Position numbers and translations under genes: made by a program. Below, piece by piece: positions 261-61,020 of a DNA stretch of 64,000 bases (position 1 is its first letter; the number at the start of each line of letters is the position of its first letter). Source of the stretch: Clostridia bacterium (GTDB taxonomy: Bacteria > Bacillota > Clostridia > Christensenellales > CAG-138); assembly GCA_017448545.1 (NCBI GenBank), contig JAFSLH010000005.1, positions 52,627 to 116,626 on the forward strand, read 5' to 3'. A model generated the notes under the pieces. The model was not told the DNA's origin. It was given only the letters and a program-made list of their open reading frames with translations, and did no database searches.

Positions 261-1250
261 ATGCCGCAACCGAGTTATACCTATGCGAACGCACGCCTGG
301 CGGCGCTTTCGAAGCGGCTTTTGGATCCGCCGACGATTCGCCGCATGGCGGACGGATCGCTTGCGGACGCTTTGCGCACGCTGCAGGATCTGCGCTACGG
401 CGGATACAGCGACGGCAGCGACGCGGGTGTGGAGCAGTTGATTTCCGCCGAGCTGATCGAAGCGGCGGAGGAAATCCGCGCGCTTTCTCCGAACGTTAAG
501 ATGACCGATCTGTTTCTGCTGCGTACCGATATTCAGAATCTGAAAGTGCTGCTGAAGGCGCGTATGCTGCAGACAAAAGCCCCCGAGCTTTCGGCCGGCG
601 GCGTCTACGCAACGGAAACGCTTTCCGATATGGTGCGGGATCAGCTGTACGACGCGCTGCCCGGTACAATTGCGGCGGCGTTGAATGCCCTGGAAAAGCA
701 GCTTTCCGTTCGGGTCGATCCGCAGGAGATTTCCGTTGCGCTCGATCGTGCCTATCTGCAGTATGCGCTGGAAACGGTCAAAAACGATAAAGTATTGAAG
801 CAGTATTTCCTGTCGCTTTGCGATTTCGACAATATCCTGACGTTTCTGCGCGTCCGTGCGATGGGCGGAACCAAGGAAATGCTTGACGATCTGCTGCTGC
901 CGGAGGCCGGTATCAAAAAGCAGCAGCTGATGGAAACGTTCGACTGGTCGTTTGAGCAACTGAACCGCATCTTAAGCGCGAGCGTCTGCCGCGAACCGCT
1001 GCTGGCCGGATTGAACGCGATGCAGCACAGCGGCAATATCGGCGACGTCGAAAAAGCGCGGGACAACTATTTGATTTCGCTGTTCACCGTACACCAGTAC
1101 GAAACGGACAGCATCTATCCGATCATCGGGTACCTGCTCGCAAAAGAGCGGGAAAGCCGCGCGATCCGGCTGATCGTTACGGCGAAGCGGAACCGGCTCC
1201 CCGATTCGGTGATTGCGGAAAGGTTGGTGACACTGTATGGCCAACGGTAA
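261..1250 (+). CDS. ntpC: V-type ATP synthase subunit C
   Basis: 329-aa ORF with an AGGAGG RBS. The N-terminus YTYANARLAALSKRLL and its position in the operon fit subunit C. Confidence 0.85.
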   Translation: MPQPSYTYANARLAALSKRLLDPPTIRRMADGSLADALRTLQDLRYGGYSDGSDAGVEQLISAELIEAAEEIRALSPNVKMTDLFLLRTDIQNLKVLLKARMLQTKAPELSAGGVYATETLSDMVRDQLYDALPGTIAAALNALEKQLSVRVDPQEISVALDRAYLQYALETVKNDKVLKQYFLSLCDFDNILTFLRVRAMGGTKEMLDDLLLPEAGIKKQQLMETFDWSFEQLNRILSASVCREPLLAGLNAMQHSGNIGDVEKARDNYLISLFTVHQYETDSIYPIIGYLLAKERESRAIRLIVTAKRNRLPDSVIAERLVTLYGQR

Positions 1251-1560
1251 ATGCGCCGTGATCGGCGATCGGGATTCGATTCTGCTGTTTCGTGCGGTCG
1301 GGATTGAGGTATATCCGGAAACGGACGGCGATCGCGCGAACCAGATCATGCACCGGCTTGCGCGAACGGGATACGCCGTTATCTATGTGACCGAATCGCT
1401 GTACCCGCTCTGCGCGGAAACGGTAGCGGAGTTTGCGTCGGAACCGTATCCGGCGATTATCCCGATTCCGGATGCGCTCGGCTCGCAGGGGACGGGCATG
1501 AAAACGCTGAAAGCGAACGTCGAAAAAGCGGTCGGCGTTGATATTTTGAGTAATTCTTGA
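1237..1560 (+). CDS. ntpF: V-type ATP synthase subunit F
   Basis: 107-aa ORF overlapping the end of subunit C. It contains the subunit F signature [19 protein letters not shown]. Confidence 0.85.
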
Positions 1561-1574
1561 GCAGGAGAGAGAGT

Positions 1575-3338
1575 ATGCAAGGAACGATTATCAAAGTTTC
1601 CGGGCCCTTAATCGTTGCAGGCGGCATGGCGGACGTCCAGATGTTCGACGTCGTTCGCGTGTCCGAAAAGCATCTGATCGGCGAGGTCATAGAGCTGCGC
1701 GGCGACAAAGCGTCCATTCAGGTTTATGAGGAAACCGGCGGCATCGGGCCGGGCGAGCCCGTTGTTTCGACCGGCGCGCCGCTGTCCGTTGAGCTTGCGC
1801 CGGGCCTGATCGAGTCGATTTACGACGGTATCCAGCGTCCGCTTTCCGAGATTCGCAAGCGCGCAGGCGACCGCATCACGCGCGGTATCGAGGTCAATGC
1901 GCTCGACCATGAAAAGTTATGGCACTTTGTCCCGACGGCAAAGGTCGGCGATGTGCTTGCGGCCGGCGATGTGCTCGGCACGGTGCAGGAGACCGAGGCG
2001 GTTCTCCATAAGATCATGGTTCCGCCGAATGTTTCCGGTACGCTGACCTGGATTTTCGAGGGCGACGCGAACATCGTAACCCCGATTGCCAAGCTGGAAA
2101 AGAACGGCAAGACGGTTGAACTGCCGATGCTGCAGAAGTGGCCGGTGCGCAGAGGCCGTCCGTATGCCGAAAAGCTCGCGCCGAATGAGCCGATGATTAC
2201 CGGTCAGCGCGTTATTGATACGCTGTTCCCGGTTTCCAAGGGCGGCGTCGCAGCAGTTCCCGGTCCGTTCGGCAGCGGCAAGACGGTCGTGCAGCATCAG
2301 CTTGCGAAGTGGGCCGATGCGGATATTATCGTTTACGTCGGCTGCGGCGAGCGCGGCAACGAGATGACGGACGTTCTGATGGAGTTCCCCGCGCTGAAGG
2401 ACCCGCGCACGGGACTGTCGCTGATGAAGCGTACCGTGCTGATCGCGAACACATCCGATATGCCGGTTGCGGCGCGTGAAGCGTCCATCTATACGGGCAT
2501 CACGATTGCGGAGTATTTCCGTGACATGGGATATAAAGTCGCTATCATGGCGGACTCGACGAGCCGTTGGGCAGAGGCGCTGCGCGAAATGAGCGGTCGT
2601 CTCGAAGAAATGCCCGGTGAAGAAGGATACCCTGCGTATCTGTCTTCCCGTCTCGCGGAGTTCTATGAGCGTGCCGGCGCGGTCAAGACGCTCGGCAGCG
2701 AGGGACGCACCGGCGCCGTTACGGCGATCGGCGCTGTTTCCCCTCCGGGCGGCGATATTTCCGAACCGGTTTCGCAGGCGACGCTGCGTATTGTAAAGGT
2801 GTATTGGGGCCTTTCGGCCAAGCTCGCGTATGCGCGTCACTTCCCGGCGATCGACTGGCTGCAGTCCTATTCGCTGTATCAGGATCGGCTGGCGCCGTGG
2901 TTCAATTCGAACGTGAATCCGCAGTGGTCGGCGCTGGTTGCAGAAACGATGCATCTTTTGCAGGTTGAAAGCGAACTGGACGAAATCGTCCGACTTGTCG
3001 GTATCGACGCGCTGTCGTTCCGCGATCGATTGACGCTCGAAACCGCGCGCAGCATTCGTGAGGACTATCTGCACCAGAACGCGTTCCACGAGGTTGACAC
3101 GTATACGTCGCCGAAGAAGCAGTATATGATGCTCGACGTGATTCTGCAGAACTACAAGAAGTCGCTGGAGGCGCTGGAGCATGACGCGTCGTTTGCCAAG
3201 CTGATGGCGATGCCGGTTCTGGAGCGCATCGGTCGTCTGAAATACGTTCCCGAAGATCGCGTGGAAGAGGAGTATAACGACATCCTGAAAGCGATTGCCG
3301 CCGAAACGGCTGCGCTGACGGAAGGAGGTGCGTTCTGA
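1575..3338 (+). CDS. ntpA: V-type ATP synthase catalytic subunit A
   Basis: Walker A motif GPFGSGKTV and strong A-subunit similarity throughout. I chose the ATG at 1575, which follows GGAGAGAGAG, over the upstream TTG at 1557. Confidence 0.95.
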
Positions 3339-4714
3339 TGCGGAAGGAATATCGTACGATTACCGAAGTCGTCGGCCCGCTGATGATGGTCAAGGACGTC
3401 GAAGGCGTCAAGTATGACGAACTCGTTGAGATCGAGCAGGCGGACGGCACAATCCGTCGCGGCAGAGTGCTGGAAATCAACGGCGACAAGGCGATGGTGC
3501 AGTTGTTTGAGGGCTCGCAGGGCCTTCGGATTTCGGACAGCAAAGCCCGCTTCTTGGGCCATTCGATCCAGCTTGCCGTTGCGCCGGACATGCTCGGCCG
3601 TATCTTCAACGGCATGGGCGAGCCGAAGGACGGCGGCCCCGCGCTGATTGCCGAGAAGCATCTTGACATCAACGGCGTCGCGATGAACCCCGCCGCGCGC
3701 GACTACCCCTCCGAGTTTATTCAGACCGGCGTTTCCGCAATCGACGGATTGAATACGCTGGTGCGCGGACAGAAGCTGCCCGTGTTCTCCGGCTCCGGTC
3801 TGCCGCATGCAAACCTTGCCGCGCAGATCGCGCGTCAGGCGCGCGTACTCGGCTCCGATGAGAAGTTCGCCGTCGTATTCGCCGCTGTCGGCATTACGTT
3901 CGAGGAAGCCGACTTCTTCATCAACGACTTCCGCAGAACCGGCGCGATCGAGCGAACCGTGACGTTTATCAACCTGGCAAACGACCCGGCGATCGAGCGT
4001 ATCAATACGCCGCGTATGGCGATCACCGCTGCGGAATATCTGGCATACGATCTCGGCATGCACGTGCTCGTTATCATCACGGACATCACGAATTACGCCG
4101 AGGCGCTGCGCGAAGTCTCTGCTGCACGTAAAGAGGTCCCGGGCCGCCGCGGTTATCCGGGCTATATGTACACCGATCTTGCGACGATGTATGAGCGCGC
4201 GGGCCGTATTCGCGGCAACAAGGGCTCGATCACGATGATCCCGATCCTGTCGATGCCGGAAGACGACGTAACGCATCCGATTCCCGACCTGACCGGCTAC
4301 ATCACCGAGGGCCAGATCATCCTGTCCCGCGAACTGTACCGCAAGGGCGTAACGCCCCCGATCAACGTCCTCCCGTCGCTGTCGCGTTTGAAGGATAAGG
4401 GCATCGGCAAGGGCAAAACGCGCGAGGATCATGCGGATACGATGAATCAGCTGTTTGCCGCCTATTCCCGCGGCAAGGACGCGAAGGAGCTGGCCGTTAT
4501 TCTCGGCGACGCGGCGTTGTCCGATACCGACAAGCTGTATGCAAAGTTTGCGGATGCGTTCGAAGCGGAATACGTTTCGCAGGGCTATTACACGAACCGT
4601 TCCATCGAAGAGACGCTCGATCTCGGCTGGAAGCTGCTTTCGATTCTGCCGAAGTCGGAGCTGAAGCGTATTCGCGACGAGTACATCGAAAAATACTATC
4701 CCGAGGAGGCGTAA
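3338..4714 (+). CDS. ntpB: V-type ATP synthase subunit B
   Basis: 458-aa ORF with typical B-subunit sequence ([21 protein letters not shown]). A TGATG overlap couples it to subunit A. Confidence 0.95.
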
Positions 4715-4717
4715 GCC

Positions 4718-5350
4718 GTGGCGCTGCAATACAAGCCCACCCGAATGGAGCTGTCCAACCTGAAAAAACGGCGGACGGTTGCCATTCGCGGTCACAAGAT
4801 GATGAAGGATAAGCGGGACGAGCTCGTTCGCCGCTTCATCGTCTATGCCCGGCGGAATCAGCAATTGCGGCGGGAGACGGAGGAGAAGCTCCAAAAGGCC
4901 ATGCAGAGCTTCGTGCTCGCACGCGCCATGATGTCGACGGCGGAGATCGAGGAAGCGCTCCTGTATCCGGCGCGCGCGATCGACCTCGATCAGTCGGTGC
5001 AGAACGTGCTTTCGATCCCGGTACCGAAGCTCGAAATGCAGGATCCGCAGGACGGATTCGTGTACCCGTACGGATTCGCTTCCACGGGCGCGGATCTCGA
5101 TACGGCGGTGCAGGCGCTTGCGGAGATTTTGCCGCTGATGCTGGAACTTGCCGAGGTCGAAAAAGCGACAAGCCGGCTCGCTGACGAGATTGAAAAAACG
5201 CGCCGCCGCGTCAATGCGCTCGAGTACGTCATGATTCCGCAGTTCGACGAGGCGATCCACGATATCCAGATGAAGCTCGAAGAAAACGAGCGCGGCAACA
5301 CGTCCCGCCTGATGAAGACGAAAGAAATGCTGGCAAAGGAAGCGGAATGA
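4718..5350 (+). CDS. ntpD: V-type ATP synthase subunit D
   Basis: 210-aa ORF with a GTG start 3 nt after subunit B. The N-terminus PTRMELSNLKKR and the coiled-coil C-terminus fit subunit D. Confidence 0.9.
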   Translation: MALQYKPTRMELSNLKKRRTVAIRGHKMMKDKRDELVRRFIVYARRNQQLRRETEEKLQKAMQSFVLARAMMSTAEIEEALLYPARAIDLDQSVQNVLSIPVPKLEMQDPQDGFVYPYGFASTGADLDTAVQALAEILPLMLELAEVEKATSRLADEIEKTRRRVNALEYVMIPQFDEAIHDIQMKLEENERGNTSRLMKTKEMLAKEAE

Positions 5351-6274: not shown

Positions 6275-6545
6275 GTCGCACTAAGCGGGGAGTTAGCGGT
6301 GCCCTGTACTCGCAATCCGCTATAGCGAGGCTGAACTCCCATTCCGAGGCAAACGGTTGTGAGGTCGATCCCGGCACGGAGTGTTGATCGGCGGGTCCTG
6401 TGCAATCGTGCGCTGTGAACCGTGTCAGGTCCTGACGGAAGCAGCACTAAGCAGAAAGCGCGGTGTGCCGCGGGAAAGCCTGCAAGGAGCCACCGACCGG
6501 GCCACCACTCGGAGCCGAATGTCGAAGAATGGGTGTGCGATATTG
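6275..6545 (+). ncRNA. ffs: Signal recognition particle RNA, large Bacillus/Clostridium type (scRNA)
   Basis: Contains the domain IV core GTCAGGTCCTGACGGAAGCAGCAC. The 5' TGTCGCAC pairs with the 3' GTGTGCGA. An Alu-like 5' domain (GGGGAGTTAGCGGTGCC) is present, the length is about 270 nt, and no coding signal is apparent. The ends are approximate. Confidence 0.8.
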
Positions 6546-9282: not shown

Positions 9283-9304
9283 ACCCAAAGAACAGAACAG
9301 ATCT

Positions 9305-9336
9305 AAAAAGAAGCAGGCGTTTTCCTGCTTCTTTCT
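9305..9336. terminator. Bidirectional intrinsic terminator hairpin
   Basis: AAAGAAGCAGG-CGTTTT-CCTGCTTCTTT lies between convergent genes and is flanked by A- and T-runs. Confidence 0.6.
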
Positions 9337-9340
9337 GCGT

Positions 9341-10588: not shown

Positions 10589-10807
10589 ACTTCTCCTGTG
10601 CGGCGGCGCGGTTTTGTGCAAAGCCGCCTTTTGAAACAGTATACCACGCTGCTGCGCATCGTTCAAGATAATTCTGCCGAACCGTTCGAAATCACAATAC
10701 GACAGGCAGATTTTGTTCGTATCCTGTCGATGGATGCGGAAATTACGGCGCGTCCCGATCCCTTGATTCGCGCTTTTTGAACGGTTTCGGTTCGCTACAA
10801 TGGACGC

Positions 10808-13054
10808 ATGCAAACGGGAAAGGCGCGAAAAACAAAATATCGGAAGCCGACAGACGAATGGGTTCTGTCGATTGTTTCGTTTTTGCTTGCCGTTCTTTTG
10901 AGTCGCGTTCGCATCCATGCGTATCATGCGCCGTTTGCCGCAGCCGTTCTGTACGGCGCGGTCATGTGCAACCTGTCGTTTCCGCTGACGGCAGCCGGTG
11001 TGGTCGCGGGCTGTTTTCTGGGCGCACCGGCGTGGGACAGCGCACTTTGCGCCATGCTGTTTACCGCAGCCTATGCGTTGGCGCGATTGCGGGAGAACCA
11101 TCTTTCTGACCGATTCCGGACGATTCTGTTTGCCGGATGCTGCGTGCTGGCTGTGCCGATTTGTGCTGTACAAGGAAAAACGGAACTGATTTACGGCGCA
11201 TTGTGTGCGCCGATCGCACTGGCCGGAGGCGTCTGCATGACGCACGCGTTTCGGACGCTCGGCCGGTTTCGGAGAATCAGGCTTCTGACGGAATGGGATC
11301 AAAACGCGCTGCTTGTCGCATGGGGACTCTGCATTCTGGGGTGTTCGGAACTGTCCGTCGGGGACGTGTCGTTTTCGATGATCCTGATCTTATTTTCTAC
11401 CATGGTTCTCACACGCGCGCGAGGGCTTTATGGCTCGTTTGTCGCATCGCTGCTGTCCGCCGCATGGGTGCTTTATTCCAAAATGGACGCGCGAATCGTC
11501 GCCGTTGTGACGCTCGGCGCGGCGCTTTCGATTCCGTTCTATCGCGAGGGGAGAATCTGGATCGCGGCAAGTCACTTTGCGTCGGCTTTATTGTTGATCG
11601 GGTTGCAGCCGGAAGGTCTTTCGGCAGGGTTGATCTGGAACACCGTGGCATCGTCCGTCCTGCTTCTGCTGCTGCCTGCGCCGATCATTGAACGGATCAT
11701 AGCGCTGACAGCGATCGACCAGACGATCCAACGAAACGCACGCGCATCGCTGCTGCGTGAACAGAAACGAACGGCGGATTCCCTCTCCGAGATGAGCACG
11801 CTCCTCAAAGCGGTGTCCGACACGTTTCAACGGGAACCGTCTTGGCAGGAAACGACGGAGGAGTGGACGGTGCAGGGCGCGCTGGTGATTTGCCGCAACT
11901 GTGTGCATCAAAAAATATGTTGGAAACATGCGGACGATATGCGGATTACGGTCATGGAACTTGCCGAACGGCTCGACCGTGCGGAAAAGGTGATTCCGCT
12001 TGATCCGATCCGGCCGGACTGTCCGGCGTTTTCGGACGTCTGCGGTTCCGTTCTGCTCGCGTTTCAGCAAGCGTCTCTGCGATGCGCGGTTCGCGCACAA
12101 TTGCAGCGGGACGCGCGGTTTACGGCACGGGAACTGAACGGCGCCGGGGAAGCGGTTGACCGGCTTGCGTCGCAGTATCGGATGCCGTTCGGGTTGGATC
12201 GCAGCATGGAAGCGGCGATCCTGAAAGCGCTTTTGAAAGGCGGATTTGAAACGAACGCCGTCGAAGTCGTGCGCGAGCCGGACGGGCGAAGCATTCGCGT
12301 TCATTTGGCGTCGTATGACCCCAATACGGCGGGTGAGATACGGAAGCGCGTGGCAGAGGCGACCGGCGGACGGGTGCGGCTGATTACCGCGGAGCAAACG
12401 GGAGAAGACGTGCAGCTGCTTTTGGAACCGGCGCCCAAGTGGAACGTACGGATGGCGGTTTCGCAGTCGGCGGTTGACGAAGCTGCTTCCGGGGACAGTT
12501 TCGGTGAGAAGCACAGCAAAGGGGGTCGTTCGCTGTTCGCACTCTCGGACGGGATGGGAACCGGCAAGCAAGCCAACGCGGAAAGCTGCGGCGCGATCGA
12601 AACGCTGTTTCGCCTGTATGATTCCGGGATGGAACGGGAACTCGTATACGAGAACGTGAACCGGATTCTGATGCGCGGTTCCCGCGAGGATTCCTATGCG
12701 ACGCTGGACGCGGTTTCGTTCGATCTGAACACCGGGACGGCGGAACTTTTGAAGTTCGGTACGCCGCCTTCGTATCTGCTGCGCGGGAAAACGCTCTATG
12801 CGCTTTGTGGCGAAGCGCTGCCTTGCGGCATCGTGGACGACGTGCGTCCGACGGTCATCCGGTTGGATTTTGTGCCGGAAGACGTTCTGCTGCTGATGAC
12901 GGACGGCGTGACGGACGCGCTTGCGGAGAGGACGGAAGCGGTTTTGGTCGCGAATGCAAACCGATCAGACGCGGCGGACAGGATTCTTGCGGCAGCGCGG
13001 GAAACCGGGTATCGGGACGATCAATCCGTAATGGTTCTGCGTGTCCGCCGATGA
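10808..13054 (+). CDS. spoIIE: Stage II sporulation protein E (SpoIIE PP2C phosphatase)
   Basis: The N-terminal third has about 10 TM segments. The C-terminal PP2C domain carries SGDSF and ALSDGMGTGKQA, and the total length of 748 aa fits SpoIIE. Confidence 0.9.
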   Translation: MQTGKARKTKYRKPTDEWVLSIVSFLLAVLLSRVRIHAYHAPFAAAVLYGAVMCNLSFPLTAAGVVAGCFLGAPAWDSALCAMLFTAAYALARLRENHLSDRFRTILFAGCCVLAVPICAVQGKTELIYGALCAPIALAGGVCMTHAFRTLGRFRRIRLLTEWDQNALLVAWGLCILGCSELSVGDVSFSMILILFSTMVLTRARGLYGSFVASLLSAAWVLYSKMDARIVAVVTLGAALSIPFYREGRIWIAASHFASALLLIGLQPEGLSAGLIWNTVASSVLLLLLPAPIIERIIALTAIDQTIQRNARASLLREQKRTADSLSEMSTLLKAVSDTFQREPSWQETTEEWTVQGALVICRNCVHQKICWKHADDMRITVMELAERLDRAEKVIPLDPIRPDCPAFSDVCGSVLLAFQQASLRCAVRAQLQRDARFTARELNGAGEAVDRLASQYRMPFGLDRSMEAAILKALLKGGFETNAVEVVREPDGRSIRVHLASYDPNTAGEIRKRVAEATGGRVRLITAEQTGEDVQLLLEPAPKWNVRMAVSQSAVDEAASGDSFGEKHSKGGRSLFALSDGMGTGKQANAESCGAIETLFRLYDSGMERELVYENVNRILMRGSREDSYATLDAVSFDLNTGTAELLKFGTPPSYLLRGKTLYALCGEALPCGIVDDVRPTVIRLDFVPEDVLLLMTDGVTDALAERTEAVLVANANRSDAADRILAAARETGYRDDQSVMVLRVRR

Positions 13055-14049
13055 AGATCATCATCGAATGGTTCTTGCTTGACAATGCGCTGATGAACGC
13101 CTGTATCTTTCTGCTGGCTGCTGCTTTTTCCGGCGCACGGATTCGCGTTCTTCCGATCTGCCTGTTTTCAATCGGCGGCGCTGTCTATGCGCTTCTTGCA
13201 TTATTCTATATTCCCGTGCTGCGATCGACATGGGTCAAGCTGCTTTCGTTTCTGCTGCTTGCGCTGCCGATGTGGGAAAAGGGGACGTCGATTTTCTGGA
13301 CGCTGCTTTCGGTGCTGCTTTCCGCCGCGATGCTCGGCGGTGCAGTCCTTTGCATCACGCTCTTATCCGGCGGAACGGTGCATGCCGACGGAACGATTGT
13401 CGGAACGATCCCGCTGCGCGTCTCGTTGCTCGGACTCTTTGTCGCGCTGCTGCTGCCGCGATGGATGCGCGGTTTACTGCACCGAAGGCGCGTGCAGTCG
13501 CTGCAAACGACACTGACGATCCGGTTGTCCGATGGGGAACACACGCTTCGTGCGATGATCGACACGGGCAACCTGCTGACGGAACCGATCTCCGGTCTGC
13601 CGGTCGTCTTATTGCAGGACGTATCGGTCAAAACGGAGCGGGTCATCCCGTTTGCTATGCAGAACGGCGTCGGTGTTTTACCCGCGGAGCGCGCACAGGA
13701 GGCACGGCTCCCGGAATACGGAAACGGCTTAATCGACTGTTATGCGGCGTCGGCAGTACAGCCGATCCTGCATGCGGACGCAATTTTACCGGCGACGCTG
13801 CTGCCGCCGGATTGGAGGGAATCGAATGAAACGAATCAAACTGCGACACAATCCGTTTTCTCTGCGCTGGCACGCTTGGCTGCAAAGGCTGCGGCTGCGA
13901 CTTCGGCGGCTGCTCGGCGGGCGAAACGTCGTATGGTACATCCATTCGACCGAAACGCTGCCCGCGCCGCTCGATCCGGAGGAGGAAGCGGAATGCATCC
14001 GACTTGCTCCGACCGAGAAATGGGCGAAGGACAAACTGATCGTTCATAA
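13051..14049 (+). CDS. spoIIGA: Sigma-E processing peptidase SpoIIGA
   Basis: Five N-terminal TM segments and the aspartic protease motif MIDTGN. An ATGA overlap couples it to spoIIE. The frame has no stop codon until 14049, which is inside sigE. Confidence 0.85.
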
Positions 14050-14575
14050 TCTGCGCCTTGTCGTTTATCTGGCGCGAAAGTTTGACAACACCGGCGTTTC
14101 GACCGACGATCTGATCGGCATCGGAACGATCGGCCTGATCAAAGCGATCGACACGTTCAAGCCGGACAAGAAAATCAAGCTGGCGACCTATGCGGCTCGC
14201 TGCATCGAAAACGAAATCCTGATGCACCTTCGGCGCACCACGCGCCAAAAGCTCGAAGTCAGCTTCGATGAACCGCTGAACGTGGATTGGGACGGGAACG
14301 AATTGCTGCTTTCCGATATTCTCGGAACCGATCCGGATACCGTGAGCCGGGACATGGAGGATTCCGTGGAACGCGAGCTTCTCTATCAGGCGCTTGATAC
14401 GCTGACGGATCGGGAGCGGGACATCATTGCCATGCGATTCGGTCTCCTGGACGACAATCCGCGGACGCAGAAGCAGGTGGCCGACGCGATGGGTATTTCA
14501 CAAAGCTACATCAGCCGCATCGAAAAGCGCGTCATGAAACAACTGAAGCAGGAAATGCTGCGGATGCAGTCATAG
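13826..14575 (+). CDS. sigE: RNA polymerase sporulation sigma factor SigE (pro-sigma-E)
   Basis: MKRIKLR pro-sequence, then [26 protein letters not shown] and [13 protein letters not shown], near-collinear with B. subtilis SigE. A GGAGGGA RBS precedes the ATG at 13826. Confidence 0.92.
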
Positions 14576-15349
14576 CGTGACGTATTTCTCCAGCTGCCGC
14601 AGCGCGCTTTTTTCGAGGCGCGAGACCTGAGCCTGTGAAATGCCGATTTCCTTGCTGACTTCCATCTGCGTGCGCGCGCCGAAGTATCGCAATTTCAATA
14701 TCTTCTGTTCGCGTTCGTTGAGATGCGACATCCCTTCTTCCAGCGCGATGCTGTTCAGCCATTGGGATTCGCCGTCCTTCGTGTCTTTGATATGATCCAT
14801 GATCGTCGTCGCGTCTTCGTCGCTGTGGTACACCGGTTCGTAAAGACTGACCGGATCGGAGATCGCGTCGAGCGCAAAGACGACGTCGGCTTCGGGCAGC
14901 TGCAGTTCTTTCGCAATTTCCGCGACGGTCGGGTCGTGATCGGACCGCTCGGAAAGCCGGTTTTTGGCCTGCATCGCGCGATATGCAAGATCGCGGATCG
15001 AGCGCGAGACGCGAACGGCGTTGTAGTCCCTGAGATGTCTTCGGATTTCGCCGGCGATCATCGGCACCGCATAGGTGGAAAAGCGAACGTCCAGCGACAG
15101 ATCAAACCCGGCAATCGCTTTCATCAGGCCGATACAGCCGACCTGAAACAGATCGTCCGGCTGTTCGCCGCGCCCGGCAAACCGTTGAACGACGGAGAGC
15201 ACCAACCGCAGGTTTCCGAAGATAAACCGATCCCTTGCCGCAAGATCACCCTTCTTGGCTTTTTCCAGAAGGGAACGCATTTCCGCCGGGCGCAGAACGG
15301 GCAGAGAGCCGGTGTCGATACCGCAGATTTCAACTTTATTCGTAAGCAT
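14570..15349 (-). CDS. sigG: RNA polymerase sporulation sigma factor SigG
   Basis: [16 protein letters not shown] at the N-terminus, plus [13 protein letters not shown] and [12 protein letters not shown], match SigG rather than SigF. The ATG at 15349 follows GGAGG. Confidence 0.9.
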
Positions 15350-15425
15350 ACCTCCGAGGGGATGATATGCCCAGTGTTCCCAGCAGCGCGAAGGAATAAA
15401 CGGAAAGGAAACGGTTTGCGCATAT

Positions 15426-15454
15426 TTGACAGGATATGACAAACATGGTAGAAT
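15426..15454 (+). promoter_or_regulatory. Near-consensus sigma-A promoter (TTGACA-17-TGgTAGAAT)
   Basis: TTGACA at 15426-15431, a 17-nt spacer, and extended -10 TGGTAGAAT at 15446-15454. The PPTase ATG lies 7 nt after the -10 element, with no SD sequence. Confidence 0.55.
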
Positions 15455-15461
15455 AGCGGAC

Positions 15462-16091
15462 ATGAAGGCTGTTTTACTTGTGACATTCGCATCTGTCGAG
15501 TCGCTTCCGGCGCTTTCTGCCCGCTATGACGGGATGCTTTCAATGTATCGGCAGCAGAAGCTTTCCCGACTGAAAGACGAGGAAGACCGTGCGCGCAGCA
15601 TGCTGGCAGAGTTTTGTCTGATGGAAGCTGTACGGCGCATCGTTCCGTCCTGTCCGCTTCCGCTAACGATCAGAACGGAGCAAAACGGGAAGCCGTTTCT
15701 GATCGGATCACCGCTGCAGATCTCGCTTTCGCATGCCGGCGCTTACGCCGCGGCGGCGGTCAGCACGCTGCCGGTCGGCGTGGACGTGGAGCGAACGCGC
15801 ACGGTTTCCGAATCGCTCGTGCGGCGGATTGCCACCGAATCGGAGTGGGCTGCGCTGCAAGAACTCGGGATTACGGACGAATCGTTCCGGGACCTGTTTT
15901 CGGCGAAGGAAAGCCTTGTTAAGCGAGACGGCATCGGGCTTGCAGCGCTTAAGCAGGCGGACATCACAAAAACGAATGCGGTACGGCAACTGCGGTTTGC
16001 CGACTATGTTCTTTCGGTCGCGTCGGATCTGACGGCTGAATGGGAGGTGTATACATGCGGAAAAGATGGATTGTTCTGCTTGCACTGCTGA
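15462..16091 (+). CDS. 4'-phosphopantetheinyl transferase, Sfp type
   Basis: Motifs GKPFL, ISLSHAGAYAAAAV, GVDVER and KESLVKRDG fit the Sfp family. The length is about 209 aa. Confidence 0.8.
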   Translation: MKAVLLVTFASVESLPALSARYDGMLSMYRQQKLSRLKDEEDRARSMLAEFCLMEAVRRIVPSCPLPLTIRTEQNGKPFLIGSPLQISLSHAGAYAAAAVSTLPVGVDVERTRTVSESLVRRIATESEWAALQELGITDESFRDLFSAKESLVKRDGIGLAALKQADITKTNAVRQLRFADYVLSVASDLTAEWEVYTCGKDGLFCLHC

Positions 16092-17206
16092 TCCTGATCG
16101 GATGCAGCAGCGGCTTGATGGAAACAGACGTTTCGACAACCGAAACGCCGATCATTATTGAAGCCGAGATAACGCTTAAGACGCCGACCCCGATTGCCGA
16201 AGCGACGGAAACGACTCCATCCCCGACAGCAATGCAGGCGCCGACCGAAACGTCAGTTCCGACCCCGGAACCGACTGCAACGCCCGTACCGACGCCGACG
16301 CCCGAACCGACGCCGACGCCGCGTCCGTACGTCGCGCAGGGCGACGTCTATACGATTGCCTGGATCAGCGATCCGCAGCATTATTCGGCCAAATACCCGG
16401 AGCTTTACTACGCGATGACGTCGTTTTTGCGCGATCATTGGGAAGAAATGAATCTGCAATACATCATCCATACCGGCGATCTGGTCAACAAAACGGATGA
16501 CGACGAGCAATGGAAGATTGCATCCGATGCACAGTCCTATATCGACGATATTCCGAACGGCGTCCTGGCGGGGAACCATGATTGTCAAAGCCCGGACGGC
16601 TTTACACCCTACAGCAAGTACTTTGGTGAAAAACGTTATAAAGACCGGGAATGGTACGGGGGATCGTATCAAGACAATCGCGGACATTACGACTTGCTGA
16701 CGATCGGAAATACGGATTATATATTTGTATATATGAGCTTTGGCCCGGGGAGCGGCGCAATTAAGTGGATCAATCGTGTTTTCGAGGAGCATCAGGACCG
16801 TGTCGGATTTCTGCTGGTACATGAATACTTTGAGAACGATTTTACTCGCTCCAAAGATGGGCAGAAACTATTTGATCAGGTCATAACAAAGAACCCGAAC
16901 GTGTACTTCATGCTCTGCGGCCATCGATACGGCGCGTACCGGCAAGTCTCCGAAATCGACGACGGCGACGGGAAGCCGCTTCGGACTGTGCATGAGATGA
17001 TGTTCAACTACCAGGCGGCCGGAAAGATCGGCGGAAACGGGTATCTGCGGCTGATGCAGATCGACGAATCGGCCGGAACGATCCACATGCTGACGTATTC
17101 GCCGAGCGACGACGACTTCAATCGTTTCGACGATCCGGAGAACCGGGAATTACATTATGAAGTCGACGAAACAGCCGAGGAATTTATCATTCCGATTCCG
17201 TGGTAA
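16055..17206 (+). CDS. Metallophosphoesterase lipoprotein with Thr/Pro-rich linker
   Basis: Lipobox LLILIGCSS, a linker (TPVPTPTPEPTPTPRP) and calcineurin-like motifs (ISDPQH, HTGDL, GNHD). The ATG at 16055 follows GGGAGGTG. It overlaps the PPTase gene by 37 nt. Confidence 0.8.
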   Translation: MRKRWIVLLALLILIGCSSGLMETDVSTTETPIIIEAEITLKTPTPIAEATETTPSPTAMQAPTETSVPTPEPTATPVPTPTPEPTPTPRPYVAQGDVYTIAWISDPQHYSAKYPELYYAMTSFLRDHWEEMNLQYIIHTGDLVNKTDDDEQWKIASDAQSYIDDIPNGVLAGNHDCQSPDGFTPYSKYFGEKRYKDREWYGGSYQDNRGHYDLLTIGNTDYIFVYMSFGPGSGAIKWINRVFEEHQDRVGFLLVHEYFENDFTRSKDGQKLFDQVITKNPNVYFMLCGHRYGAYRQVSEIDDGDGKPLRTVHEMMFNYQAAGKIGGNGYLRLMQIDESAGTIHMLTYSPSDDDFNRFDDPENRELHYEVDETAEEFIIPIPW

Positions 17207-17212
17207 GACATA

Positions 17213-17246
17213 GGGAACCGATGCAAAAAGGCACGGTTCCTTTTTG
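17213..17246 (+). terminator. Intrinsic terminator
   Basis: GGAACCG-13 nt-CGGTTCC followed by TTTTT. Confidence 0.55.
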
Positions 17247-17277
17247 ATTGGAATCCATTGGAGAAAACGCGGAAAAC

Positions 17278-17306
17278 TTGACACATTCTGTCACAATGGA
17301 TATACT
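17278..17306 (+). promoter_or_regulatory. Sigma-A-type promoter (TTGACA-17-TATACT)
   Basis: Exact TTGACA at 17278-17283, a 17-nt spacer, and TATACT at 17301-17306. It lies about 60 nt upstream of the 17368 start. Confidence 0.55.
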
Positions 17307-17367
17307 ATACAAGATGGAATGATCCGTAAGGCGTTGCACGCAAAGATTGTATCATAAGGAGGATCCG

Positions 17368-17859
17368 ATGCAAAAACAGCTCAGAAAACAGCGGGATTCA
17401 CTTATGATTTCCGGCACCGGCGTTATTGCGTTCGGAACGTGGAGCGTTGTGCGATCTATCGTATACTTTGCAACCGGCGTTCGTGAGATTCAGGCCTCTT
17501 TTCCGCAGCGTTTTGCGAACGATCTGACGATTGCGACGCTGTATGTGCTGGTGTTTGCGTTTTTGACGTTTGATCTCGGCCTGCGTGTATACGTCGGCTT
17601 TTGCGCGCGCGCGGAAGGACGGGGCAAAAGCGCCGGTCTTGCGTATCTGATCGTGGCGGGCATTCTGATCGCAACGTATTGCTATTCCATTCCGCAGGAT
17701 ATTATTGTTTTCACGCGCGGGCAGGATACGCTTCTGGTTTTGTTTGCATCGCTGTTTATTGACCTGACCTCGCTGCTGACATTGACGCTGCTGCTGTATT
17801 CCGCCGTTCAGACTCGACGCCTTGAAAAGGCACTTTCCGAAGGGAGGGAAGCGCAGTGA
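17368..17859 (+). CDS. Hypothetical integral membrane protein (4 TM)
   Basis: The ATG at 17368 follows AAGGAGGA. The protein has four hydrophobic segments, and I recognise no family. Confidence 0.6.
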   Translation: MQKQLRKQRDSLMISGTGVIAFGTWSVVRSIVYFATGVREIQASFPQRFANDLTIATLYVLVFAFLTFDLGLRVYVGFCARAEGRGKSAGLAYLIVAGILIATYCYSIPQDIIVFTRGQDTLLVLFASLFIDLTSLLTLTLLLYSAVQTRRLEKALSEGREAQ

Positions 17860-19025
17860 ATACGGATTTCCATTATTATGCTACCTATTGCGCGGCAGTG
17901 CTTGCCGGATTCTCTCATGAAGAAAGCGTAACGGTCGCTTATTCCGCCGAACTGACGGATAACTGCACCAAAACGTTCCTGTCCAAGCTGAAAGCGCCGC
18001 GGGAAGCAGCGACGTCGCAGCTGACGATGGAAATGATGGATGCCCGCAACGACCTGATCGGCATTTGGGACATTACGCGCATCTGGGCGTCGTTCCATTT
18101 TCTGCCGTATGATCTGTATGCGCAGAAGCCGCATTGCGCCAAGCAGTATCTGGACAAGTATCGACTGATTTGCGGACCGAACAGCGATCTGCTCGTGGAA
18201 ACCGTGAACCTTGCGAAGGGGAAAAGTCTGCAGGCATTCGGACTTTGCATGCACGTGCTCGCCGATACGTGGGCGCATCGGTACTTCGCCGGAACGACGT
18301 CGCTGGTCATCAACAACGTGGATGATTCGGTGCGGGAGCTGATGAACGCGGACGGAACCGAGACGCGACCGATCACGTTTGTGCGCAATCCCGGCCGTCC
18401 CGACGACGTGTTTGGCGGCTCCTATTCCGCGACGATGTTTGTAACGAGCGAAAACTCCGTCATGAACCTCGGACACGGGCGTGCGGGACGCATTCCGGAT
18501 TACAGTTTCCTGCGATATCGGTATCAGCCGGCATGGGCGGATTACGAAGAGTTCGAGAAGAACAATCCCGAAGATTACTACCATGCGTTCACGCAGATGA
18601 TTGATGCGCTGCGATTCCTGAAAGGCGATTCGGAAACCTTCGAAAAGGAACGTTATGCGTTCGATGCGGTCGAGCCGCATGAAAACACAATCCGCACGAT
18701 ACTGACGACGCGGCAGGGGGAAAATGACGCTTGTCGGGCATGGAAAGCGTTCGGCGAACAGCTTTCCGGTACGAGCATCCCCGATTTCTCGCTGGAAACG
18801 CATCAGCAGGAATACATCGATGCGCCGGAGGGAAAGAAAAACGACACGTTCCTGGGACGGTATATCCTTGCGGCGCTTGCCCAAAAGAGCATGGTGACGA
18901 ACCGTATTCACCGTTCGGGCAACGTGCTTGCAGGACGGTCGATCGACTACAACGAAAAAGGGCTGCGTGGGCTGCGCGATTATTGGGCGCTCGTGTTCTC
19001 CCCGGAGGAGGCCCAGGATGAGTAA
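17856..19025 (+). CDS. Hypothetical His-motif protein (zinc phospholipase C / nuclease P1-like motifs)
   Basis: 389-aa ORF with a GTGA overlap start. Motifs are DFHYYATY at the N-terminus, ASFHFLP, HVLADTWAHRYF and NLGHGRAG. There is no signal peptide. Confidence 0.6.
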   Translation: MNTDFHYYATYCAAVLAGFSHEESVTVAYSAELTDNCTKTFLSKLKAPREAATSQLTMEMMDARNDLIGIWDITRIWASFHFLPYDLYAQKPHCAKQYLDKYRLICGPNSDLLVETVNLAKGKSLQAFGLCMHVLADTWAHRYFAGTTSLVINNVDDSVRELMNADGTETRPITFVRNPGRPDDVFGGSYSATMFVTSENSVMNLGHGRAGRIPDYSFLRYRYQPAWADYEEFEKNNPEDYYHAFTQMIDALRFLKGDSETFEKERYAFDAVEPHENTIRTILTTRQGENDACRAWKAFGEQLSGTSIPDFSLETHQQEYIDAPEGKKNDTFLGRYILAALAQKSMVTNRIHRSGNVLAGRSIDYNEKGLRGLRDYWALVFSPEEAQDE

Positions 19026-19563
19026 ACTGCAGCGGATTCGAAAATTCCTGACCGGATTGTTGTTGCTGGCTGTCGTTGTACTGCTTGGCGTTTGGCCGGA
19101 GATCGGATACGACGTTCTGATCATCGTGCTGTGCGTGGGAATGCTGGCCTACGGCATCCGTATGCTGATCTACTATTTTGTGATGGCGCGGCATATGGTG
19201 CGCGGAAAGCTGATTTTGCTGATCGGGATTTTGATGGTGGACTTCGGCCTGTTTGCGCTGACGCTGTCGCACATCCCGAAAGTGTATATGCTGCTGTATC
19301 TGTTCCTCGGGCACATGTTTTACAGCGTGATCGACATCATGCGCGCGATGGAGGCACGGAAAAACAGTTCTCCCCGCTGGCAGTTCAAGCTGCTGTTCGG
19401 CGCATTCAATCTTCTGATTGCGCTGTTTGCACTGATCGGCGGTCTTGTAGTGCGTTCGGTGCGCGTACCGGTCTATATCTACGCCGTCGGTCTCCTGTAC
19501 ACCGGCATTGAACGGATTGTCGACGCGTTCCGGAAAACGGACGTTATGTTCTTCGAGACGTAA
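19018..19563 (+). CDS. HdeD/DUF308-like membrane protein
   Basis: The ATG at 19018 follows GGAGGAGG and overlaps the upstream gene by 8 nt. It has about six TM segments in a repeated small-helix pattern. Confidence 0.55.
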   Translation: MSKLQRIRKFLTGLLLLAVVVLLGVWPEIGYDVLIIVLCVGMLAYGIRMLIYYFVMARHMVRGKLILLIGILMVDFGLFALTLSHIPKVYMLLYLFLGHMFYSVIDIMRAMEARKNSSPRWQFKLLFGAFNLLIALFALIGGLVVRSVRVPVYIYAVGLLYTGIERIVDAFRKTDVMFFET

Positions 19564-19566
19564 GTT

Positions 19567-19596
19567 AAAACCGACCGTACGACGCGGTCGGTTTTG
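19567..19596. terminator. Bidirectional intrinsic terminator
   Basis: AAAACCGACCG-TACGACG-CGGTCGGTTTT lies between convergent genes. Confidence 0.7.
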
Positions 19597-19614
19597 TACT
19601 GCCCGAAAAAAGTG

Positions 19615-22986: not shown

Positions 22987-23045
22987 CAAAGAAAGTAACA
23001 ACAGCGCTTGGATTGCTCCTTGCGCTGTTTTGCTTTGCTTGGCTG

Positions 23046-52977: not shown

Positions 52978-52996
52978 TCCGACAGACAAACAACAT

Positions 52997-53026
52997 GCGG
53001 GACCGCTTTTTCGGCGGTCCCGTTTG
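52997..53026. terminator. Bidirectional terminator hairpin
   Basis: GCGGGACCGC-TTTTTCG-GCGGTCCCG followed by TTT, between convergent genes. Confidence 0.6.
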
Positions 53027-53038
53027 CGTTCAGATGGG

Positions 53039-55111: not shown

Positions 55112-55127
55112 GCCCCAAAACATGCAG

Positions 55128-55160
55128 CATCCCGCAGAATTGACCTGCGGGATGTTTTTT
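55128..55160 (+). terminator. Intrinsic terminator
   Basis: CATCCCGCAG-AATTGAC-CTGCGGGATG followed by TTTTTT. Confidence 0.75.
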
Positions 55161-55164
55161 GCAA

Positions 55165-60849: not shown

Positions 60850-60855
60850 GAAAAA

Positions 60856-61020
60856 CAGAGTAGGCAGGCGCGCGTCGGCAAAAGCCGCAGTGCCGCACGG
60901 ACGGGGAGTTGCCGTGCGGACGAAGAAGCGCAAATCTCGCGATGCGTCTGCCGCATCCCGCTGTGACATCATACGGACCGTTTGCCTCCTTGTGTTGCCA
61001 TAGCCGGCAAAGAAGGAGGT
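60856..61020 (+). promoter_or_regulatory. THF (tetrahydrofolate) riboswitch with SD-sequestering expression platform
   Basis: The aptamer at 60856-60966 carries AGAGTAG, GCGCGT, GGGGAGT, ACGAAG and GCATCCCGCTGTG, collinear with the THF-I aptamer as I recall it from Eubacterium siraeum. GCCTCCTT (60984-60991) can pair with the SD sequence AAGGAGGT (61013-61020). It lies upstream of a folT-like gene. Confidence 0.8.

Follow-up and report, generated by a model that had tools for sequence, protein, structure and literature searches.

Genes and geometry of the sigE/sigG locus

The sporulation genes considered here lie in the window (the whole stretch of DNA analysed, 64,000 nucleotides) within a one-directional array, in which all the genes from 10808 to 19563 are encoded by the plus strand except sigG, in the order spoIIE-spoIIGA-sigE-(sigG)-downstream genes. 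The gene spoIIE (748 aa, 10808..13054, plus strand) was recognized by NCBIfam TIGR02865 with E = 1.9e-68, below the curated cut-off, and the Pfam domains SpoIIE_N and SpoIIE were matched on the identical gene of the locus L001. It is followed, after a gap of 8 nt (in the relatives, the two gene calls share 4 nt), by spoIIGA, encoding the pro-sigma-E processing protease (13063..14049, plus strand; Pfam Peptidase_U4, E = 1.9e-25, and NCBIfam TIGR02854), and directly 3' of the latter stands the sigE orthologue for pro-sigma-E (249 aa, 13826..14575, plus strand), with the same 249-aa call in L001. The spoIIGA frame extends 224 nt past the sigE start (13826-14049), in a different frame, and the silent-site diversity of sigE is lower in this overlap (0.24-0.32 vs 0.40-0.50). 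In the relatives, the overlap amounts to at least 119 nt in the gene-called L092 and, taken as the spoIIGA stop against the extent of the sigE match, to about 120-180 nt or more elsewhere, and the canonical locus L094 has a 13-nt gap between the two genes instead. The gene sigG (259 aa, 15349..14570, minus strand) adjoins sigE with an overlap of 6 nt; beyond it, on the plus strand, lie an ACPS-family (phosphopantetheinyl-transferase) gene (15462-16091) and a Metallophos lipoprotein-like gene (about 16055-17206), both assigned by Pfam (ACPS and Metallophos, respectively) and by the gene calls of L001.

The overlap of spoIIGA and sigE is also where automatic annotation goes astray: gene callers shorten sigE to 170-177 aa at this place (L083, L085, L091), and the calls of L001 give a wrong-frame 199-aa ORF instead of spoIIGA. 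Such mis-annotation can make the metagenome-assembled genomes (MAGs) concerned seem sporulation-defective.

The names sigE and sigG, given in an earlier note made from the letters of the window, proved right, since both genes passed the NCBIfam cut-offs: 346 bits against 339 for the SigE family NF006158 (SigK, 262 bits) and 397 bits against 372 for the SigG family NF006071 (SigF, 280 bits). The SigG protein is identical to GenBank MBR0081399.1, annotated as SigG in a 'Clostridia bacterium' MAG. As judged by these profile scores, sigE and sigG are true orthologues. That the minus-strand gene is instead another paralogue of the SigF/SigG family, with the functional sigG located elsewhere, appears very improbable. 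Although its score of 391 stays under the stricter TIGR02850 cut-off of 457, it passes the SigG equivalog cut-off of NF006071 and outscores SigF by over 110 bits, its alignment to SigG is full length, starting at the N-terminal NKVEICG motif, it has a sigma-F-type promoter (motif match), and it groups in the SigG tree with the sigG genes of canonical loci; a second sigG copy or a further sigma paralogue is absent from the window.

At the junction, the plus strand reads ATG CAG TCA TAG (14564-14575), with which sigE ends as M Q S stop, and sigG, read from the other strand, ends as K Y V T L stop, its final codon CTA being the reverse complement of the sigE TAG. The pair thus overlaps tail to tail by the six nucleotides TCATAG (14570..14575), both coding sequences being counted with their stops. 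The triplet TCA encodes Ser in SigE and, read on the opposite strand, is the TGA that stops sigG; TAG stops sigE and, read likewise, gives the final Leu codon of SigG, i.e., each stop lies within the frame of its partner and covers the partner's last sense codon (TCA/TAG). The earlier note had spoken of stop codons overlapping by 6 nt; the convergence and the 6 nt stand, as an overlap of the coding sequences, but the stop codons themselves abut. Its positions of the stops, TAG at 14573-14575 for sigE and TGA at 14572-14570 for sigG, agree with the reading of both strands, and the 6-nt coding overlap leaves, as it had held, zero intergenic space and hence no room for a terminator between the genes.

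Distribution and age of the convergent layout

The convergent layout was found on 10 contigs from separate assemblies, which carry the identical SigG with the same neighbours, and in relatives at 37 loci, where the identity of SigG to that of the window is 66-100%; the carriers are uncultured Clostridia from gut or rumen-type samples. Among the SigG homologues (identity to the window in brackets), sigG is convergent with sigE in P0006 (84%), P0012 (76%), P0031 (74%), P0040 (72%), P0067 (70%), and P0083 (67%), stands alone in P0091 (68%), and is in the canonical order in P0118 (65%). The survey of layouts combined one genome per GTDB species with loci read from SigG homologues and is a sample, not a census. 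It gave the usual co-directional order sigE to sigG, which the earlier note had taken as canonical, in at least 58 other Firmicute loci, set against the opposite-strand sigG of the window and the 37 related loci, and sigG unlinked from sigE in at least 13, where unlinked means no sigE in the DNA on either side of sigG (mostly 5 kb, at least 1.5 kb by rule). L003 was the only convergent GTDB locus among the matches listed.

The exact junction of -6 nt with YYATGACTGCAT is present in six species-level lineages (the window, L003, L085, L087, L089, and L091), which were found via SigG homologues without use of the junction pattern. The search of JGI metagenomes with that pattern matched 39 contigs, of which 30 carry true sigE/sigG junctions of the YYATGACTGCAT type, with SigG 66-86% identical to the window's. 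The SigE terminus is MQ(S) in all the junctions compared, and the last SigG residue is Leu where sigE stops at TAG and Ser where it stops at TGA; with this covariation, the residue is dictated by the stop codon of the partner. Two departures from the exact overlap were seen within the layout: in L092 the stops of sigE and sigG abut with a gap of zero, and in L083 a 41-nt spacer separates the genes, with a hairpin and a T-run in the sigE direction forming a sigE terminator.

In the neighbour-joining tree of SigG, all the 37 convergent loci fall into one clade, whose proteins have diverged to 61% identity and in which only the unlinked L093 and one too-short contig are otherwise nested. The lineages next out from this clade are unlinked ones; the order of events is tentative, because the tree rests on a single protein. 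In L093 (5769-6800), the unlinked sigG is followed by about 1 kb of short ORFs without a called gene, and no sigE match was found in this locus. The earlier note had pointed to the relatives for dating the inversion, and among them the layout turned out to be clade-wide. It is best explained as an ancient inversion, by now fixed, of sigG alone within a one-directional array. Since sigG is the sole inverted gene in two neighbourhoods, that with ACPS and Metallophos and that of L092, where yabP-yqfD-phoH lie beyond it in their place, an in-place inversion of sigG alone would be the simplest history. After the inversion, the spacer may have shrunk until the coding sequences came to share 6 nt.

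A mis-oriented sigG in the contig, named by the earlier note as what would overturn its reading, can hardly be credited, as the same junction is carried by the 10 contigs from separate assemblies, by six species-level lineages, and by the 30 metagenome contigs. Equally negligible is the chance that sigG sits on an invertible segment flipping between the canonical and the convergent state. The earlier note had seen no inverted repeats flanking sigG, and none that is credible was found, the best pairs being of 13-32 nt, 74-94% matched, and wrongly placed. All 37 loci show one orientation, no recombinase occurs among the called genes or Pfam matches near the locus, and, with the coding sequences overlapping, a flip would cut short both sigE and sigG.

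The layout is accompanied by another linkage: spoIIE is directly 5' of spoIIGA in 33 of the 37 convergent loci vs none of the 58 canonical loci among those listed. Accordingly, the three regulators of compartment-specific sigma activation, spoIIE, spoIIGA, and sigE, look like one operon in this clade, as far as gene order can tell. In L084, whose SigG is identical to that of L083, pyrH-frr replaces spoIIE 5' of spoIIGA (L084 6554-8756), which reflects a rearrangement of recent date or else a chimeric assembly.

Terminators and promoters around the junction

All five of the other short convergent gaps in the window (51-61 nt; 9283-9340, 19564-19614, 22987-23045, 52978-53038, and 55112-55164) were found by folding to hold perfect GC-rich hairpins of 11-13 bp, flanked by A and T runs, with energies from -15.5 to -23.3 kcal/mol, i.e., terminators for both strands. 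The absence of a terminator from the sigE/sigG junction, already stated in the earlier note, could be extended into the genes themselves: sliding-window folding of 30 loci revealed no terminator-grade hairpin within 200 nt inside sigE or sigG. In these 30 loci, the medians of the best 36-nt hairpins up to 200 nt beyond each stop are -14.4 and -13.2, no better than the minimum of -16.3 expected from the coding background, so that a covert intrinsic terminator inside the partner gene was rejected. A pattern scanner matched only L083 and one weak site of L097, and it missed most of the clear terminators of the control gaps. The ratios of C over G downstream of the stops, calculated as a check for a Rho-loading signature, are 0.7-1.4. 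The first terminator-grade hairpin with a T-run past sigE is met 2.6 kb away (17208..17243, plus strand, -17.1 kcal/mol, then TTTTTGATT), and the first terminator-grade site past sigG, by sliding-window folding, at about 9339-9304 on the minus strand.

An 11-bp hairpin of -17.8 kcal/mol is located inside sigE, on the minus strand at 14219..14254, about 330 nt past the sigG stop, and it would be a possible species-specific stop for sigG transcripts. As a conserved sigG terminator it was rejected, being absent in 29 relatives, with a median of -9.7 in 30 relatives. The hairpin coincides with two differing residues, the window having TTRQK and most relatives TTKLK. Because the sigE and sigG paralogues face each other, the junction is flanked by an imperfect inverted repeat made up of their region-4.2 codons for the GISQ motif (14490-14505 and 14631-14645). 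A long hairpin across the junction is predicted, but it is no better than in shuffled sequences (z = -0.9 and -1.5) and was discarded as a functional element.

Directly 5' of sigG, about 25 nt from its start, a forespore-type (sigma-F/G) promoter was recognized by motif match, GTTTA-N15-GGGAACACTG (15372..15401, minus strand), and GTTTR-N15-GGnnAnAcTr recurs at the same place in 27 of the 30 non-identical loci of the clade. Its -10 part presumably agrees with the sigma-F consensus. The 15-nt spacing is common in the sigma-F promoters of B. subtilis (PMC5942855). Back to back with the sigG promoter stands a divergent sigma-70-type promoter, TTGACA-17-TAGAAT with TG before the second hexamer (15426..15454, plus strand; 11 of 12 matches in the promoter scan), which is predicted to serve the phosphopantetheinyl-transferase and metallophosphatase genes and has TTGACA-17-TACGAT as its conserved equivalent in the relatives. 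The likely promoter region of the spoIIE-spoIIGA-sigE array is 10640..10807 (plus strand), by motif reading and an alignment of seven loci. It includes two Spo0A-box-like motifs 5' of spoIIE (GnCGAAT and ATTCGCC), common to the relatives in that alignment, and a -10-like TACAAT, conserved in the relatives, that ends 6 nt before the spoIIE ATG. The early promoter of the sigE operon is probably Spo0A-driven.

Some features of the starts deserve mention by themselves. The -10-like hexamers end only 6-7 nt before the ATG in spoIIE (TACAAT, 10794-10810) and ACPS (TAGAAT, 15449-15464), which suggests that both mRNAs may be leaderless or near-leaderless. The Shine-Dalgarno sequence GGAGG of sigG is only 1 nt from the ATG (window 15349-15360, minus strand), and in several relatives (seen directly in L003, L087, L089, and L091) sigG starts at TTG with normal spacing; the tight spacing and the TTG starts would both suggest weak initiation of sigG translation.

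Insulation, possible antisense transcription, and comparison with known systems

To our knowledge, few features of gene order are shared as widely among endospore formers as the sigE-sigG neighbourhood, and we know of no settled reason for the position of sigG behind sigE or purpose of the untranslated read-through message. The convergent pair is a previously undescribed layout of the known spoIIG-sigG cluster in the literature searched, where no description of it was found. With the canonical cluster of B. subtilis, C. difficile, and C. acetobutylicum, the clade shares the same three adjacent orthologues, spoIIGA before sigE, and the own forespore-type (sigma-F/G) promoter of sigG (PMC3789822), recognized here by motif match. 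However, in the clade sigG lies on the other strand, with the 6-nt overlap at the 3' end of sigE; a sigE-sigG intergenic region and a three-gene transcript are both lacking, spoIIE has joined the array on its 5' side, and the spoIIGA frame runs into sigE. Three transcripts have been described in B. subtilis and C. acetobutylicum, one of them spanning spoIIGA-sigE-sigG, and in C. difficile the sigma-A-driven transcription of sigG was inferred (PMC3789822; PMC2530871). With sigG on the opposite strand, the spoIIGA-sigE-sigG message cannot form in the clade, and the convergent geometry likewise excludes a sigma-A-driven transcription of sigG as inferred for C. difficile. Therefore, sigG is insulated from the early sigE-operon promoter and relies only on its own. 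The hairpin of more than 20 bp that blocks the translation of the read-through sigG message in B. subtilis (PMC5942855) is unnecessary where no such message exists.

The lineages with unlinked sigG (labelled Oscillospiraceae, Ruminococcus, Eubacteriales, and Defluviitaleaceae), the nearest neighbours of the clade in the SigG tree, are similarly devoid of a co-directional link from sigE to sigG, but theirs have no sigE near sigG, whereas the clade keeps the adjacency in the opposite orientation. Excludons, described in Listeria, are neighbours of opposed function on opposite strands with a long antisense transcript that doubles as mRNA. The likeness is that the read-through from sigE would cross sigG and, the ACPS and Metallophos genes being co-directional with sigE, enter both in sense; the difference is that excludons are defined by mapped long transcripts, classically of divergent genes rather than of coding sequences overlapping at their 3' ends. 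The switches based on interference of convergent promoters, such as prgQ/prgX of pCF10 and pR/pL of phage 186, are also face-to-face units for alternative states, whose choice can be sharpened by interference and antisense pairing. However, their promoters lie within tens to hundreds of bp of each other and work in one and the same cell, while the promoters of the sigE operon and sigG, separated by about 4.6 kb if spoIIE is the first gene of the operon, are expected to fire mainly in different compartments.

The earlier note had also argued that read-through from either gene is antisense to the other, and this follows from the convergent geometry; as no stop for the polymerases is predicted, such read-through would reach into the partner gene. 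Its further suggestion, a built-in mutual exclusion of sigma-E and sigma-G expression, is tempered by several of the results given below. The reading we favour, as slightly on the probable side, is the insulation of sigG together with some reinforcement by antisense transcription. According to it, polymerases leaving sigE in the predivisional and mother cell would traverse sigG and its promoter in antisense, thereby damping stray or premature sigma-G synthesis, and sigG transcription in the forespore would run antisense into sigE, spoIIGA, and spoIIE. The antisense transcription would thus reinforce, not create, a compartment specificity that the sigma cascade establishes, and an antisense tuning of sigma-G or sigma-E appears plausible from this arrangement. 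The clade may be regarded as a natural experiment that retains the linkage, excludes co-transcription, and makes antisense transcription likely. An active antisense would hold the self-amplifying sigma-G in check, by simple hard-wired means, up to the proper moment and site; an inactive one would leave proximity, or nothing at all, as what is preserved in the clade.

A bolder version, that the terminator-free, overlapping, head-on pair is a selected cis-acting device of promoter occlusion and mutual antisense silencing, seems unlikely. If true, transcription of spoIIE-spoIIGA-sigE, early and in the mother cell, would occlude the sigG promoter, with antisense RNA delaying or blocking sigma-G, and forespore transcription of sigG would silence spoIIE, spoIIGA, and sigE. 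Such a DNA-encoded toggle would take over the part that in B. subtilis falls to the read-through hairpin, the anti-sigma-G factors, and the weakness of the sigG promoter. Several results speak against an antisense role in either version. Over the final 15-45 codons of sigE and sigG, the silent-site diversity (0.40-0.46) equals that of the gene bodies, which argues that no embedded element is under selection, and the z-scores of the long hairpin (-0.9 and -1.5) likewise reveal no selection beyond the coding constraint near the overlap. Against any antisense role also stands the unlinked sigG of L093, inside the clade, and of the sister lineages, and the L083 spacer with its sigE terminator indicates that read-through is dispensable and perhaps disfavoured. 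In B. subtilis, sigE and sigG are already kept apart by compartment-specific sigma factors, and their promoters are thought to be active in different cells or at different times, so that collisions of transcription may be rare. In C. difficile, overlapping convergent transcripts are common (32% of the transcripts with mapped ends) and mostly without known role (PMC8237595).

Some of these observations lend weight to a neutral frozen accident, a possibility of some substance even if it falls short of being probable. It supposes that sigG was inverted once, that the spacer was lost by deletion bias, and that read-through, short-lived owing to Rho and RNases, has no measurable effect on sporulation; the layout would persist only because the overlapping 3' ends bar any harmless rearrangement or indel. 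Indeed, the 3' overlap leaves no neutral breakpoint, which could alone preserve the layout. The absence of extra constraint on the silent sites near the junction agrees with such a history, as do the compactness of the locus throughout (the 8-nt gap of spoIIE-spoIIGA and the 120-224-nt overlap of spoIIGA/sigE) and the last SigG residue, which merely tracks the sigE stop (Leu/TAG, Ser/TGA). One lineage gained a terminator spacer and another abutting stops with no obvious harm, and unlinked sigG is no handicap in the related lineages. What speaks against the accident is the presence of strong terminators at five of the five other short convergent junctions of the window and the retention of the terminator-free state while SigG of the clade fell to 61% identity. 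This retention across the clade means tolerance, possibly advantage.

Several other features of the window were noted in passing. A 702-aa ORF on the minus strand (3152-5260), without a Pfam match, overlaps the last of the V-type ATPase genes (261-3338) and is probably a spurious high-GC ORF; being antisense to V-ATPase genes, its apparent convergent overlap of -187 nt was rejected as false. No rRNA was detected within the window. A large bacterial SRP RNA is located at 6276-6540 (195 bits), and a THF riboswitch at 60854-60965 (73 bits).
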